Origin: Escherichia phage mEp460_ev081
Length of the DNA: 45,865 nucleotides
Strand: one strand, 5' to 3'
Sequence record: LR597641
In this document: piece after piece, positions 2,832 to 44,093 of the stretch
Layout of the letters: each line of letters begins with the position of its first letter
Position numbering within the stretch: the first letter of the stretch is position 1
Notes under the pieces: model-generated
Databases searched by the model: none
What the model was told of the DNA's origin: nothing
Seen by the model: only the letters and a program-made list of their open reading frames with translations
Translations under genes and position numbers: made by a program

Positions 2832-4339
2832 TGGCAATTCTTGATGATGTGATTGGCGTTTTTTCACCAGGATGGAAAGCGGCAAGGCTGCGTTCCCGTG
2901 CGGTGATCCAGGCTTATGAGGCCGTAAAAACGACGCGGACACACAAAGCCCGACGGGAGAACCGAACTGCCGACCAGTTAAGCCAGTACGGGGCCGTGTC
3001 GTTACGTGAGCAGGCTCGTTACCTTGATAACAACCACGATCTGGTCATTGGTGTATTTGACAAGCTGGAAGAACGGGTGGTGGGGAAAAACGGGATTATT
3101 GTCGAGCCACATCCGGTATTACGCAATGGGGCCATTGCCCGTGATCTGGCAGCGGAGATACGTACCCGATGGAGTGAATGGTCTGTCAGTCCGGAGGTCA
3201 CCGGGCAGTTTACCCGTCCGATGCTGGAACGTCTGATGCTGCGTACCTGGCTGCGCGATGGTGAGGTGTTTGCCCAGATGGTTTCCGGGCGCATAAACAG
3301 CCTGACGCCTTCTGCCGGTGTTCATTTCTGGCTGGAGGCGCTCGAGCCGGACTTTATTCCCATGACCAGTGATGAGAGCAACAGGCTGAATCAGGGCGTG
3401 TTTGTTGATGACTGGGGGCGTCCCGAAAAATATCTGGTGTATAAAAGCCGTCCCGTATCCGGGCGGCAGATGGAAACCAAAGAAGTGGATGCAGAGCGAA
3501 TGCTGCATCTTAAATTTGTTCGCCGTCTGCACCAGATGCGCGGGACGTCTTTGTTGTCCGGTGTGCTGATCCGCCTCAGTGCTCTGAAAGAGTATGAAGA
3601 TTCTGAGCTGACTGCAGCAAGGATCGCCGCTGCTCTGGGGATGTACATCCGGAAAGGCGACGGACAGAGCTATGAAACGGATGGTAATGACAGCAAGGAG
3701 AATGAACGCGAGCTTACCATTCAGCCAGGCATTATTTACGACGATCTGAAACCCGGCGAAGAAATCGGAATGGTGAAGTCGGATCGCCCCAATCCTAACC
3801 TTGAAACTTTTCGTAATGGTCAGTTGCGTGCCGTGGCTGCGGGCAGTCGTCTGAGTTTTTCCAGTACAGCGCGCAACTATAACGGCACTTACAGCGCCCA
3901 GCGTCAGGAGCTGGTTGAATCTACTGATGGCTACCTGATCCTGCAGGACTGGTTTATTGGTGCCGTCACCCGCCCGATGTACCGTGCCTGGCTGAAACAG
4001 GCTGTGGTATCCGGTGTTATCAGGCTACCCCGCGATCTGGACCGATCTTCACTGTATACCGCGGTGTATTCCGGACCGGTGATGCCGTGGATTGACCCTG
4101 TTAAGGAGGCTGAGGCCTGGAAAATTCAGATTCGTGGTGGAGCGGCGACAGAATCAGACTGGGTACGTGCAGGTGGTCGTAATCCAGATGATGTCAAACG
4201 TCGGCGCAAGGCCGAAATTGATGAAAACCGCAAGCTGGATCTGGTATTTGATACCGATCCGGCCAGTGATAAAGGAGGCAGCAGTGCCGCAACGAAACGA
4301 CAGGAGCCGCAGCACACCGACGACCAGTCCGAAGAATAA
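2831..4339 (+). CDS. Portal protein (lambda gpB family)
   Basis: About 500-aa ORF; chosen start MAILDDVIGVF at an in-frame ATG immediately after the gpW stop; canonical position between W and the protease/capsid gene. Confidence 0.9.
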   Translation: MAILDDVIGVFSPGWKAARLRSRAVIQAYEAVKTTRTHKARRENRTADQLSQYGAVSLREQARYLDNNHDLVIGVFDKLEERVVGKNGIIVEPHPVLRNGAIARDLAAEIRTRWSEWSVSPEVTGQFTRPMLERLMLRTWLRDGEVFAQMVSGRINSLTPSAGVHFWLEALEPDFIPMTSDESNRLNQGVFVDDWGRPEKYLVYKSRPVSGRQMETKEVDAERMLHLKFVRRLHQMRGTSLLSGVLIRLSALKEYEDSELTAARIAAALGMYIRKGDGQSYETDGNDSKENERELTIQPGIIYDDLKPGEEIGMVKSDRPNPNLETFRNGQLRAVAAGSRLSFSSTARNYNGTYSAQRQELVESTDGYLILQDWFIGAVTRPMYRAWLKQAVVSGVIRLPRDLDRSSLYTAVYSGPVMPWIDPVKEAEAWKIQIRGGAATESDWVRAGGRNPDDVKRRRKAEIDENRKLDLVFDTDPASDKGGSSAATKRQEPQHTDDQSEE

Positions 4340-22163: not shown

Positions 22164-22738
22164 TGGCATTCAGAATGAGTGAACAACCACGGACCATAAA
22201 AATTTATAATCTGCTGGCCGGAACTAATGAATTTATTGGTGAAGGTGATGCATATATTCCGCCTCATACAGGTCTGCCAGCAAACAGTACCGATATTGCA
22301 CCGCCAGATATTCCGGCTGGCTTCGTGGCTGTTTTCAACAGTGATGAGTCATCGTGGCATCTCGTTGAAGATCATCGGGGTAAAACGGTTTATGACGTGG
22401 CTTCCGGCGACGCGTTATTTATTTCTGAACTCGGTCCGTTACCGGAAAATGTTACCTGGTTATCGCCGGAAGGGGAGTTTCAGAAGTGGAACGGCACAGC
22501 CTGGGTGAAGGATACGGAAGCAGAAAAACTGTTCCGGATCCGGGAGGCGGAAGAAACAAAAAACAACCTGATGCAGGTAGCCAGTGAGCATATTGCGCCG
22601 CTTCAGGATGCTGCAGATCTGGAAATTGCAACGGAGGAAGAAATCTCGTTGCTGGAAGCATGGAAAAAGTATCGGGTATTGCTGAACCGTGTTGATACGT
22701 CAACTGCACAGGATATTGAATGGCCAGCACTGCCGTAG
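22163..22738 (+). CDS. tfa: Tail fiber assembly protein Tfa
   Basis: 191 aa; start overlaps the stf stop; conserved Tfa-like C-terminus ([29 protein letters not shown]). Confidence 0.9.
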
Positions 22739-23976: not shown

Positions 23977-24808
23977 GAAGATATTCCTTAAAATATTATT
24001 GATTTTCATTGCGATATTGTATGTCTGATTCAGGATATGTTGACTTATACATCGGTTTTGTCTGGGTTATTGGATATGCCAATCCCTAATTTTATTAGGG
24101 CATGACTAAAAATGCTGAATATGATAAGGAGAGATGTGATTATCAGTATGCTGTTCATATAGCCTCGAATTAGTAATGTGTTATATATGATATAGTTGAC
24201 AATTTTTATCTTGGGTGTTCTTAAAGTTCGTAGATAAACATTGTCGTTTCAGGTATACAGGAATGCTAACAGGTGGCAGCAAAAATCAGGCGGTTTATGG
24301 CGCAAGCTGAAGCGGCAACTGTAAACTATCTTATGCAGAGACTCTACACGGATTGGGTTTAAAAGTATACATAGATAACAGTTTTTATCTGAAAAAGAAA
24401 AATATCAAGGTGATATAGCCTATATGCCTTTGATGCGGAGGAATGAATGTGATGGGAGTGATGTATCTGAATAGTTGAAAAACCGCAGACACGCCTTATG
24501 CAAGAACGTGCTGCGGTTGGCTGGTAAATTTTTCGATAGTGTGAGTATTGAATGATTTCCAGCCGTTCTTGATTTTACGCATAAATCCATGAAAAAACTA
24601 CTTATCTGTTGGGGAGTTTTTTTTGGGGCATATATGGGACAGAAATAGGCCCCAGATAGACACTGAGATCGAACTTAGGATGCTTTTTAAAAAATGCAAC
24701 TATCTGAAAAAACCTAGAAAACGCCAAGGAAACCACAGGATGGGAAAAAACACCTGTGAATTATGGATTTCAAGAGTCATACGTGTCAACTATTTGATAA
24801 ATATTAAA

Positions 24809-29557: not shown

Positions 29558-29615
29558 AAAAAGGGCGGCAGAGCAGTCACGGAGTAAAACTGATACCGCC
29601 AAACGTCACCAGAAA
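29558..29615 (-). ncRNA. dicF: DicF small regulatory RNA
   Basis: Reverse complement reads TTTCTGGTGACGTTTGGCGGTATCAGTTTTACTCCGTGACTGCTCTGCCGCCCTTTTT, matching E. coli DicF (ftsZ-targeting sRNA) with its intrinsic terminator; located between the ydfBC-like gene and dicB as in Qin. Confidence 0.8.
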
Positions 29616-35322: not shown

Positions 35323-35613
35323 ATCTGACCACACTGTTAACTGGAGTAACGACTATGGCAGGAATACAGCATAACCAAACTCACCCCAAACTTACATAGC
35401 GCTTTCTGGCCGTGAGCATAACAAGGTCCACTCCTCGCTCAAAGCGGACTAGAAGGTTAGCTTGTGTCGGACTTTGCGTATTAAATGACTAGTGGTTGAG
35501 CCCCATTTCCACAGAAAAAATCAGAGAAACTATACCCAATAGTTGTATTGAATCACTGACGAGACAGCCTCATATTCATCAGGACTGGTGTACGTCCAAT
35601 ACAGGAGGTTGTG

Positions 35614-35703
35614 GTGCTGGTTCTCAAATGTGCGCTGGCTATTACGGCTGTAATGGCGATTTATTGTCTTGCTATTGTTCTTATGGATCGCCTTTCTGAC
35701 TGA
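35614..35703 (+). CDS. Small hydrophobic peptide (29 aa; type I toxin-like or small membrane protein), tentative
   Basis: GGAGG (35604-35608) followed 5 nt later by GTG; encodes MLVLKCALAITAVMAIYCLAIVLMDRLSD, one predicted TM helix with a charged tail; the overlapping frame-0 Cys/Gly-rich ORF looks like an alternative-frame artefact. Confidence 0.35.
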   Translation: MLVLKCALAITAVMAIYCLAIVLMDRLSD

Positions 35704-35914
35704 TTTCACATTGGCGAGGTAACGGTAGTTAAGTAGAATGGCTGCGGGTGCTTGAGGCTATCTGCCTCGGGCATGAACACCAACGGCAGATAGAGAAAAG
35801 CCCCAGTTAACATTACGCGTCCTGCAAGACGCTTAACATTAATCTGAGGCCAATTTCATGCTAGACACATGTAGGTTAGCCTCTTACGTGCCGAAAGGCA
35901 AGGAGAAGCAGGCT

Positions 35915-36070
35915 ATGAAGCAGCAAAAGGCGATGTTAATCGCCCTGATCGTCATCTGTTTAACCGTCATAGTGACGGCACTGGTAACGAGGAAAGACCT
36001 CTGCGAGGTACGAATCCGAACCGGGCAGACGGAGGTCGCTGTCTTCACAGCTTACGAACCTGAGGAGTAA
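35915..36070 (+). CDS. hok: Hok/Gef-family type I toxin (HokD/RelF-like)
   Basis: 51 aa MKQQKAMLIALIVICLTVIVTALVTRKDLCEVRIRTGQTEVAVFTAYEPEE; the in-frame upstream extension from 35858 sits in the mok position; 3' fold-back region and terminator follow. Confidence 0.9.
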   Translation: MKQQKAMLIALIVICLTVIVTALVTRKDLCEVRIRTGQTEVAVFTAYEPEE

Positions 36071-36138
36071 GAGACCCGGCGAGGGAGAAATCCCTCGCCA
36101 CCTCTGATGTGGCAGGCATCCTCAACGCACCCGCACTT

Positions 36139-36168
36139 AACCCGCTTCGGCGGGTTTTTGTTTTTATT
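36139..36168 (+). terminator. hok mRNA terminator
   Basis: cccgcttcggcggg hairpin followed by tttttgtttttatttt. Confidence 0.6.
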
Positions 36169-36286
36169 TTCAACGCGTTTGAAGTTCTGGACGGTGCCGG
36201 AATAGAATCAAAAATACTTAAGTAGCGCGCAGGGATAAGAGGGATGGTCCCTTAAAGGGGAGAGCTAATTATCCGGAAGGATTCTG

Positions 36287-39282: not shown

Positions 39283-39358
39283 GGCCCTTTAGCTCAGTGG
39301 TGAGAGCGAGCGACTCATAATCGCCAGGTCGCTGGTTCAAATCCAGCAAGGGCCACCA
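39283..39358 (+). tRNA. tRNA with CAU anticodon (Met, or Ile2 if lysidine-modified; ileZ-like)
   Basis: 76-nt cloverleaf: acceptor GGCCCTT/AAGGGCC, D-arm AGCTCAGTGG, anticodon loop CTCATAA, T-arm GGTTCAAATCC, 3' CCA. Confidence 0.85.
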
Positions 39359-39458
39359 TCACAAACCGCCATTAGCTTATCAGGAAGAGCAGACGACACG
39401 ATAACAGGGTTGTTGGTGCGGGGGCGGGTCCCCGATGGCGGTCCATTATCGGTATTCA

Positions 39459-39535
39459 GCGTTGTTAGCTCAGCCGGACAGAGCAATTGCCTTCTAAGCA
39501 ATCGGTCACTGGTTCGAATCCAGTACAGCGCGCCA
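39459..39535 (+). tRNA. tRNA-Arg (UCU anticodon; argN/argO-like)
   Basis: 77-nt cloverleaf: acceptor GCGTTGT/ACAGCGC, anticodon loop CTTCTAA, T-arm GGTTCGAATCC, 3' CCA. Confidence 0.85.
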
Positions 39536-39999: not shown

Positions 40000-40473
40000 A
40001 TACATATCTGGATTATCACCTGTTACGGTAAAAAGTGATTGCTTACTGTTTTTGTGAATGGCATTGCAGCAGCCGGATAATGTCAGTGCTGGCTGACGGT
40101 GTGCTGGTGGCGGGTGTGGTGGTTGTTGCTTTCCCGTTGCTGAAAAAGAAAACGCCAGACTGTTAGCCGGGTATCAGTTAGCGGGAGAAATTTTTAAATA
40201 CTTCACAATTCAGGCGGTTGACTGTTCTCTGGTTTGCGGGGAGTTTGTTAAAAGAAACTGGCATGGTGAATCCCCCTGTGCGGAGGGGCAATCAGCGAGT
40301 AGGTATATGGGATAATCGCGGATTCAGGTGCTGGTACTGAATTCACCGGGAGGCACCCGGCACCATGCACTTCAATAGATTCTCTCCACATTATGGATAT
40401 TCTTTCAGAATATCCCACGCAGACTTTGTGTAAATGTTAACAAATGTGCGTTTTATTTGATCTGATTCGCTGT

Positions 40474-43314: not shown

Positions 43315-43677
43315 ATTAATATTAAATCGGATTATTTTTAGCGCTGAATGTGAAATTTAAATAAAAAGGACTCTTCCATGAGTCAAAATCCTTGAAATCT
43401 TAAGGGTAAGATAAAAGGTCATTAGACAGAATGACACGTTTTATTAATAAATAAAGCTATTGTTTCATTCGTGTGTTTTTCTTTACAAAAGTAATCCTTG
43501 CTATGGTTGGTTAATCATGCGTTAATGGTGTTCTGGTTTGTTACAAAATTATCTGAAGCAGTCATTGTTATAATTTTATTATTTGTACCTCTTGAGATTT
43601 CCTTGTTGGTTTTTCTCTCTGATATTTTTTTTCGGACCATTCTGCCCAAGGGCTAACTTCTTCAAAAGGTAATAATG

Positions 43678-43890
43678 ATGTCTAACAAAATGACTGGTTT
43701 AGTGAAATGGTTTAACCCTGAAAAAGGTTTTGGTTTCATCACGCCGAAAGATGGTAGCAAAGATGTGTTTGTGCATTTCTCAGCTATTCAGAGCAACGAT
43801 TTCAAAACGTTAACTGAGAATCAGGAAGTCGAATTTGGTATTGAGAACGGACCTAAAGGCCCTGCAGCTGTTCATGTAGTGGCACTTTGA
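43678..43890 (+). CDS. Cold-shock protein (CspA family; CspI/CspB-like)
   Basis: 70 aa with RNP motifs (KGFGFI, VFVHF); long AT-rich 5' UTR typical of csp genes. Confidence 0.9.
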
Positions 43891-44093
43891 GGTAGAAAAT
43901 ATTACAAACCATATTCACTTTAGATGCCCGTGTTGCCATGGTTCTCAGTATAGAACATCATCTTTTGATGTTTCTGACAGAAATCCTTTCGGGGCAAAAT
44001 GTATCTTTTGTAAATCAATGATGATTACATTTGATAATATTTCACAATACTTAAATGTTAGCCATCTGTCGTTAGATTTAAGAAAGTGAAAAT

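Follow-up and report, generated by a model that had tools for sequence, protein, structure and literature searches.

Just upstream of the toxin gene hokD in Escherichia phage mEp460_ev081 (sequence record LR597641; 45,865 nucleotides, hereafter the window) lies a 29-codon open reading frame (ORF), which starts with GTG and ends shortly before the hok promoter. We think it probable, on comparison of sequences, that this ORF is a genuine small gene of Escherichia and Shigella lambdoid prophages, inherited independently and mostly unannotated, whose predicted product is a membrane peptide with a single helix. The encoded protein is under constraint, the start signals are conserved, all alleles keep the hydrophobic character of a single helix, and the ORF belongs to a module that is independent of hok. 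An initial annotation, made from the letters of the DNA, had described the ORF as "strongly ribosome-bound" and as a possible second membrane toxin; the first of these phrases reflects only a match to the Shine-Dalgarno sequence, GGAGG.

Constraint on the encoded protein

Homologues were gathered by scanning viral contigs with the 15-mer at 35531-35545 and by BLAST searches that brought in hits from E. coli genomes, phages and plasmids. The 15-mer sits upstream of the ORF, so the choice of homologues does not select on the ORF itself. The resulting set numbers 84 complete copies, drawn from viral contigs and from E. coli, and contains 23-24 distinct ORF alleles. In all 84 (84/84) the ORF is undisrupted, and no stop or frameshift is found in any copy that covers it. 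The intact alleles include those that have drifted by 12-22 nucleotide differences, namely L132/L136, L133, L134, L137 and the copy on pINV, the Shigella virulence plasmid (L numbers are our own labels for the sequences compared).

Where the copies differ, they differ in the way that a protein-coding gene does. Within the main family of 39 unique sequences, variable columns number 8/28, 2/28 and 13/28 at codon positions 1, 2 and 3, or 0.29, 0.07 and 0.46, set against about 0.6 of columns in the leader and post-stop flanks and 63% in the leader around the Shine-Dalgarno sequence. By Fisher tests, position 2 is distinguished from position 3 (P = 0.002) and from the flanks (P = 8e-7). Synonymous changes make up 23/48 of the distinct variants, where 30.5% would be expected (P = 0.0085), and 24/53 when the pINV allele is added (P = 0.014); none of the other five frames has a synonymous excess, and each of them collects 1-7 stop-creating variants. 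The pairwise ratio of nonsynonymous to synonymous change (pN/pS), taken against the window allele, falls between 0.14 and 0.58 in 21 of 22 comparisons. Replacements swap one hydrophobic residue for another, with the result that the mean Kyte-Doolittle hydropathy of residues 6-24 stays within 2.4-3.1 in all alleles, and eleven residues are invariant across the 13 distinct proteins: M1, L2, L8, A9, I10, V13, I16, Y17, L19, S28 and D29. Few as the variants are, they carry the mark of purifying selection on the encoded amino acids. Conservation of the ORF, as opposed to that of the nucleotide sequence, was one of the points on which the initial annotation had staked its proposal, and the coding pattern is there, in this frame of the six only.

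A divergent allele occurs in E. coli FT130 and S30 (L132 2581-2688 and L136 1515-1622), in which a 10-nucleotide (nt) deletion removes the stop codon and the ORF enters the hok -35 box. Its product has 35 amino acids (aa), ending …FSDWRGRGS; 29 of these are shared in position with the window peptide and 12 of the 29 are different, yet the product is still fully hydrophobic.

Read directly, the sequence around the start is caGGAGGttgtgGTGctg, and a longer stretch reads tccaatacaGGAGGttgtgGTGctggttctcaaa. All that had been picked out there by eye is present: GGAGG, its spacing, the GTG and the 29 codons behind it, along with a peptide identical to MLVLKCALAITAVMAIYCLAIVLMDRLSD. The single hydrophobic helix with a charged tail reappears in our prediction as one transmembrane helix followed by a tail that is short and acidic, DRLSD. 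A program-made ORF listing begins one codon upstream, at GTG 35611, and so arrives at 30 aa. Among the homologues, that codon may be GTG, CTG, TTG, ATG or CCG, whereas every copy examined preserves the start at 35614, as GTG in prophages and as ATG on pINV, and it is because of this difference that we take the 29-codon reading to be right. The ribosome-binding site is conserved as well: four of the five Shine-Dalgarno columns (4/5) are invariant in the main family. The departures from GGAGG are GGGGG (one lineage), GGAGA (two lineages) and L133, where only AAGG is left.

Two other frames were considered and rejected. One, an overlapping Cys/Gly-rich frame of 67 aa (35496-35699), had rightly been set aside at the outset; it is present in the window, but a 1-nt indel or stops disrupt it in 32 of the 40 unique versions among the homologues, and it has no coding signature. 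The other, a 59-aa frame on the minus strand, has no coding signature either.

How much of this might be expected by chance? The window contains 17 instances of GGAGG followed at 4-9 nt by a start codon and an ORF of at least 20 codons, and shuffled sequence yields 9.8 +/- 3.0; a Shine-Dalgarno sequence, start and short ORF alone do not exceed chance. A hydrophobic helix in so short an ORF is rare. Among 388 six-frame ORFs of 22-45 codons, four have a 19-residue stretch with a mean Kyte-Doolittle value of at least 2.2, and two of the other three belong to the recognised small-protein families YnaM and DUF3927.

Distribution and independence from hok

The ORF is present in 1951 of 5426 complete E. 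coli genomes. That small ORFs like this one are missed by annotation, as the initial annotation supposed, is borne out here: a feature is annotated at the ORF in 0/30 sampled RefSeq rows, and it has been called only sporadically elsewhere (WP_000960667.1, "MULTISPECIES hypothetical protein"; OSK45992.1; EGI50483.1; GCZ25347.1). On the Shigella plasmid pWR100, it was called by Prokka and missed by PGAP. A degenerate-codon scan of 185,579 species genomes, one for each species, returned E. albertii, E. ruysiae, S. flexneri and three short contigs from metagenome-assembled genomes, and nothing else. The three contigs, L126, L127 and L129, are labelled Collinsella, Scatousia and Haemophilus, but carry E. 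coli-type small ORF and hok sequence and are probably mis-binned fragments of E. coli-type prophages.

The window peptide has no match in Pfam, NCBIfam, PHROGs or PADLOC, nor in a profile search of the PDB, and other alleles give at best weak matches to PHROG families of unknown function (E = 0.027). Searching 1.84e9 representative proteins with phmmer yielded only copies that are at least 83% identical over the matched stretch, most of them with wrongly extended starts; eight of the nine matches share the ORF's stop. Since the matches are all near-identical and all but one end at the same stop, we regard the peptide as an orphan family and not as the remnant of a longer gene.

Most copies of the ORF have hok for a neighbour. 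The hok leader follows directly on the 3' side in 75 of the 84 complete viral-contig copies. In 8/84, the DNA beyond the ORF is unrelated and has a DUF1971 gene that converges on it, and a Shigella chromosome (L131) likewise has unrelated DNA downstream; in this hok-less arrangement (L100, L134 and L131), homology stops between the hok -35 and -10 boxes. The opposite loss is seen in L072 (IMGVR_UViG_2778261226_000002, ~3763-4329), which has hok and from which the segment matching 35562-35758 is deleted. That deletion takes the spacer of the ORF promoter, the ORF and the hok promoter, leaving the upstream flank abutting the hok leader. Prophage Sp4 of the Sakai strain matches the last ~70 nt of our upstream query, which is the hok promoter region, and is without the ORF. 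In K-12, relBE sits directly upstream of hokD, and the ORF should therefore be absent there. Within the window, the stop falls 8 nt short of the hok -35 box, which puts the ORF outside the hok mRNA. It has no place in the tac, mok, sok and fbi anatomy of the hok transcription unit, ending at 35703 where the hok leader model starts at 35746.

A different setting is the Shigella virulence plasmid. When plasmids were searched with tblastn, 143 records matched, nearly all of them pINV plasmids of Shigella or enteroinvasive E. coli (EIEC); the alignment covers at least 80% of the peptide in 143/143, and most of the records have a copy with 79% identity, MLVLKGTLAIAAVMTIYCLIVVLMERFSD. The copy on pWR100 of Shigella flexneri M90T (L135 3900-4200; NZ_CP037924.1 ~90800-91100) is intact, opens with ATG behind GGAGG and is situated ~290 nt upstream of icsP. 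After it come a degenerate hok promoter and a truncated leader but no hok coding sequence, so that the locus looks like a prophage-type hok locus in decay. With the ORF intact beside a decayed hok, it follows that the ORF has outlived hok there. We treat this survival as supportive and not decisive because ~17 substitutions leave the chance survival of 29 codons not improbable.

Expression, role and competing explanations

Upstream of the leader is a candidate sigma-70 promoter, TTGAAT-17-CATATT. At 8/12 to consensus, it fell below the threshold of a consensus scan and was picked up by a looser scan of 12 allele classes. The -10 hexamer is invariant in 6/6 columns across the 39 unique main-family sequences, and TTGA(A/G)(T/G)-17-CATATT occurs in 9/12 allele classes and again in L137, with a 17-nt spacer that has itself diverged. 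Alleles that keep it include phage HannyBb / ATCC 8739, L132, L134 and Shigella pINV. Hexamers kept across diverged spacers support a promoter belonging to the ORF, though they fall short of proof. The predicted transcription start of the small gene is near 35583, which would give a leader of ~31 nt. A possible small hairpin in this leader, GGAC...GUCC, is ambiguous on covariation: there are two pairings, each with changes that look compensatory and each with breaks.

From these signals we infer how the small gene may work. Its own weak sigma-70 promoter would drive rightward transcription, and during lytic growth the early rightward phage transcript, whose operon is co-oriented with the ORF, would read it too. 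Translation would begin at GTG 35614 behind the GGAGG Shine-Dalgarno sequence, and the 29-residue peptide would enter the inner membrane as one helix, placing Lys5 in the cytoplasm and the acidic DRLSD tail in the periplasm. The gene would stand outside the hok/sok system, wholly upstream of the hok promoter and without the classical RNA-antitoxin anatomy of type I systems.

As to role, we can offer a guess, prompted by a position next to Hok at the right edge of an interchangeable anti-phage slot: the peptide may be a "moron" product, expressed in the lysogen and active in the membrane, which it might, for instance, perturb, or where it might modulate a membrane protein during phage infection. 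A more specific version, which we think decidedly unlikely, would have it as a partner of the defence cargo or of Hok, that is, a fixed "edge" gene encoding a second membrane-active effector or a modulator of the threshold for Hok-mediated abortive infection. The surviving pINV copy, within the H-NS/VirB-controlled region upstream of icsP, could have been co-opted there.

Several observations weigh against the ORF being a real gene. The family is restricted to mobile elements of Escherichia and Shigella, and for that reason no appeal can be made to deep conservation. Divergence is low and recombination frequent; the statistics treat ~50 variants as independent, and the P values are modest. One allele, L004, has a pN/pS of ~1 against the window allele. 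The ORF has GTG for a start codon. At 8/12 the proposed promoter is weak, and its -35 is replaced in L111, in E. albertii L128 and in L133. The non-coding segment 35529-35576, upstream of the ORF, is also strongly conserved, and some DNA- or RNA-level constraint must therefore act there too, although part of this conservation was forced because the search pattern lay at 35531-35545. For expression, we found no direct record of transcription or translation (ribosome profiling, proteomics) for any copy of the ORF. The peptide strings occur in no searchable paper, and neither the hokW-sokW paper, the icsP/VirB papers nor a preprint on CFT073 small proteins mentions the ORF. An atlas of transcription start sites in M90T, which gives starts for icsP at 90709 and 90726, has none at 90800-91199 on pWR100 and none with the small gene's promoter in the upstream 100 nt (PMC7132871). 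The missing start argues that the pINV copy is not strongly expressed under the conditions of the atlas. The icsP literature describes the region upstream of icsP as silenced by H-NS.

Among the rivals to the small gene described above, the one that survives best takes up the second toxin of the initial annotation: the peptide would be a type I membrane toxin, checked by an antisense or divergent small RNA and paired in tandem with Hok. We treat this as a hypothesis, and an unlikely one; the RNA-antitoxin anatomy that marks type I systems was sought, and not found, in the window allele. The part of the likeness that holds is physical. The peptide is small and hydrophobic, with a charged tail and the mean hydropathy of 2.4-3.1 noted above, as type I toxins are, and at 29 aa it is the length of TisB and ZorO. 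A genuine type I locus adjoins the ORF, at the edge of a defence slot. The part that fails is kinship. The peptide does not belong to the Hok/Gef profile (PF01848), and no similarity to this or any other toxin family emerged from Pfam or NCBIfam at E <= 10. A distant homology to Hok that can be made out by eye (K5, a CL motif, and R-L-S-D against R-x-x-L-C-E) was discarded, hhalign giving a probability of 0.4% for a 13-allele profile against HokD.

The initial annotation had advised looking on the opposite strand for an antisense promoter or RNA. No opposite-strand promoter lies over the ORF or its leader in the consensus scan and none is conserved in the looser scan of 12 allele classes; Rfam has no family match at the ORF; and neither strand folds better than shuffles (z = -1.29 for the plus strand, +0.85 for the minus). 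Nor does the ORF mRNA pair above shuffles with Sok, DicF, STnc100 or IS009. Two candidates inside the ORF were rejected. The first was an antisense promoter, TTGAGA-18-TGTATT, the -10 of which is without A at position 2 and the -35 of which is lost by synonymous changes in L133 and L134; the second was a terminator-like hairpin at 35638-35657, absent by eye from the divergent allele L134. Folds differ between alleles, and in several of them the minimum-energy fold pairs the Shine-Dalgarno region (CAGGAGG) with the 3' end of the ORF, CCUUUCUG, which speaks for the toxin. Against this, a strong and apparently accessible Shine-Dalgarno sequence is atypical of tightly silenced type I toxin mRNAs.

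A divergent RNA was considered as well. In both the main and the pINV alleles, a promoter-like site pointing the other way, GTGATT-16-TATAGT, stands back to back with that of the ORF. A transcript from it would head leftward through the region 35420-35522 to a hairpin at 35426-35449. Within that region, the commonest allele repeats the start region of the ORF in direct orientation, GTGGTGaCTGGTT, which would supply an antisense match; in L125 the duplex is better than 97.7% of shuffles. The direct repeat GTGCTGGTGGTGACTGGTT is carried by most alleles. Compared with E. ruysiae L130, however, the window allele has a 15-nt deletion that takes away part of the repeat, and its duplex energy stands at shuffle level, as do those of pINV and most others. 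The missing repeat and the shuffle-level pairing speak against a divergent small RNA antitoxin in the window allele. Divergent promoter and transcribed region are, furthermore, missing from five allele classes in which the ORF is intact, those named being L005/L138, L132/L136, L133 and L134.

It is also conceivable, and in our view very unlikely, that the ORF is incidental and that what is conserved is non-coding DNA or RNA, either the right-hand recombination flank of the defence slot or an element that regulates the hok promoter from upstream. This would sit well with the segment 35529-35576, which is at least as conserved as the ORF (partly, again, by force of the search pattern), with a stop only 8 nt from the hok -35 box, with the lack of a start site for the pINV copy in the M90T atlas, and with the frequency at which a Shine-Dalgarno sequence, start and short ORF arise by chance. 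What it does not lead one to expect is a three-base periodicity with a near-invariant second position, which is foreign to a DNA or RNA element, or a synonymous excess without stop variants in this frame of six only, or replacements of hydrophobic by hydrophobic residues. The ORF is kept, moreover, despite the absence or decay of hok in some settings and an exchanged upstream flank in others, and neither strand folds above shuffles.

Scarcely credible is a regulatory upstream ORF, in which transcription or translation across the hok -35 box tunes the hok promoter or yields a 5'-extended hok transcript and the peptide sequence is unimportant: no terminator intervenes between the stop at 35703 and the hok start at ~35746, the hok leader directly follows in 75/84 copies and the deletion in L132/L136 carries the ORF into the -35 box, but the amino acid sequence is constrained (the position-2 deficit and the conservative replacements) and the ORF persists both in the hok-less arrangement and on pINV, neither of which has a hok gene that it could regulate. 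The reading that we prefer is that of a small gene in its own right.

A prophage neighbourhood and known small membrane proteins

The window is a Qin-like lambdoid prophage of E. coli: the 851 bp around the small ORF (35400-36250) are 100% identical to Qin-like lambdoid prophages of E. coli chromosomes. The annotated order of the locus runs from cro/cI-type regulators through YdaT, replication genes, DUF977 and a 449-aa gene on the minus strand, and onward to hokD, rem, ydfU, rusA and the Q antiterminator. The 449-aa gene, annotated as a hypothetical protein, is a homologue of the anti-phage defence system PD-T7-1. In other strains, its place between the replication genes and the small ORF/hok is taken by SIR2, an ABC-three-component system, DUF262 with an AAA ATPase, DUF4145, an nSTAND1 NTPase or QueH-like genes. 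Because its contents differ in this way from strain to strain, we regard the site as an exchangeable defence slot, a hotspot of Qin-like lambdoid prophages. Homology to many prophages begins at ~35420-35436 regardless of the gene upstream, and the small ORF travels at the right edge of the slot within a module of roughly 270-300 bp. Coordinates are collected in Table 1.

Table 1. Coordinates in the window of the small ORF, its signals and other features
Feature	Position	Strand	Details
Conserved module travelling with the small ORF	35436..35730	.	from the slot's hairpin-containing right flank to ~25 nt beyond the stop
Putative sigma-70 promoter	35548..35576	+	-35 TTGAAT 35548-35553, 17-nt spacer, -10 CATATT 35571-35576
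Leader with Shine-Dalgarno sequence	35577..35613	+	GGAGG 35604-35608, 5-nt spacer before GTG; read from sequence
Small ORF	35614..35703	+	GTG start, 29 codons, TGA stop 35701-35703; product MLVLKCALAITAVMAIYCLAIVLMDRLSD
Divergent promoter-like site GTGATT-16-TATAGT	35529-35556	-	back to back with the ORF promoter in main and pINV alleles
PD-T7-1 anti-phage defence homologue, 449 aa	33822-35171	-	PADLOC E = 4e-157; annotated "hypothetical protein"
hokD/sok locus, complete	35711..36156	+	promoter, leader, coding sequence, terminator; neighbour, separate from the small gene
hok promoter TTGGCG-17-TAGAAT	35711-35739	+	promoter scan
hok mRNA leader	35746-35920	+	Rfam RF01794, 115 bits
hokD coding sequence	35915-36070	+	Pfam HOK_GEF E = 1.2e-23, 82.9 bits; hokD in RefSeq annotation
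hok terminator	36139-36156	+	same scan as hok promoter
Short hydrophobic ORF, YnaM-like	24045-24158	-	Pfam PF23676, E = 6.5e-28
Short hydrophobic ORF, DUF3927	40035-40166	+	Pfam PF13064, E = 1.7e-27

Two side observations concern the surroundings. An ATG at 35858, in frame with hok, opens a 70-aa Hok with an N-terminal extension (35858-36070), which the annotation of phage HannyBb calls "MokW-like"; in plasmid R1, mok is a separate overlapping frame. Further Rfam matches at gathering score in the window are IS009, DicF, two tRNAs, STnc100 and a cspA-type thermoregulator leader, the coordinates of these matches being 22506-22704, 29563-29614 (minus), 39283-39532, 40232-40422 and 43520-43936, a set of RNAs typical of Qin/Rac-like prophages.

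If the peptide is made, then about one third of complete E. coli genomes and most of the matching virulence plasmids of Shigella and EIEC carry an uncharacterised membrane protein, one that would almost never be recorded in RefSeq annotation. Its position beside Hok and an anti-phage slot would make it a candidate, cheap to test, for taking part in the exclusion of phages or in the physiology of the membrane. The pINV copy lies within the long upstream region used in studies of icsP regulation, and the constructs in those studies would carry the ORF unnoticed.

Set beside known systems, the small gene resembles several and coincides with none. It shares with the Hok/Gef family (PF01848) a small size, carriage on prophages and plasmids, and an N-terminal basic residue followed by one hydrophobic helix, and in most copies the two are adjacent and co-oriented, hokD beginning 212 nt downstream. 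The small peptide nonetheless has 29 aa to Hok's 51, lacks the periplasmic domain and has no sequence relationship to Hok, and its ORF is without a mok-like overlapping frame, a Sok-like antisense RNA or a conserved fold-back structure. TisB/IstR-1, ZorO/OrzO, ShoB/OhsC and DinQ/AgrB come closer in form, with toxins of 26-29 aa and a single hydrophobic helix, and the main alleles of the small ORF likewise have a promoter-like site pointing the opposite way just upstream. Toxin mRNAs of the TisB/IstR-1 type have long processed 5' leaders and a defined pairing site of 18-23 nt, whereas the leader of the small gene would be ~31 nt and the divergent element is missing from several alleles in which the ORF is intact.

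Two further comparisons are with peptides outside the toxin families. The YnaM-like (PF23676) and DUF3927 (PF13064) proteins are also short single-helix peptides of E. coli lambdoid prophages that annotation often skips; the small peptide, however, has no Pfam, NCBIfam or PHROGs model and is unlike both in sequence. MgtS, AcrZ, MgrB and similar inner-membrane peptides that regulate larger membrane proteins, each of fewer than 50 aa with one helix, an ordinary Shine-Dalgarno sequence and no RNA antitoxin, have the same architecture as the small peptide. They differ from it in that their genes belong to the chromosomal core and that both their partners and the signals that induce them are known. 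Small single-helix peptides of prophages are a known class, and the small peptide is an uncharacterised addition to it that brings no new principle.

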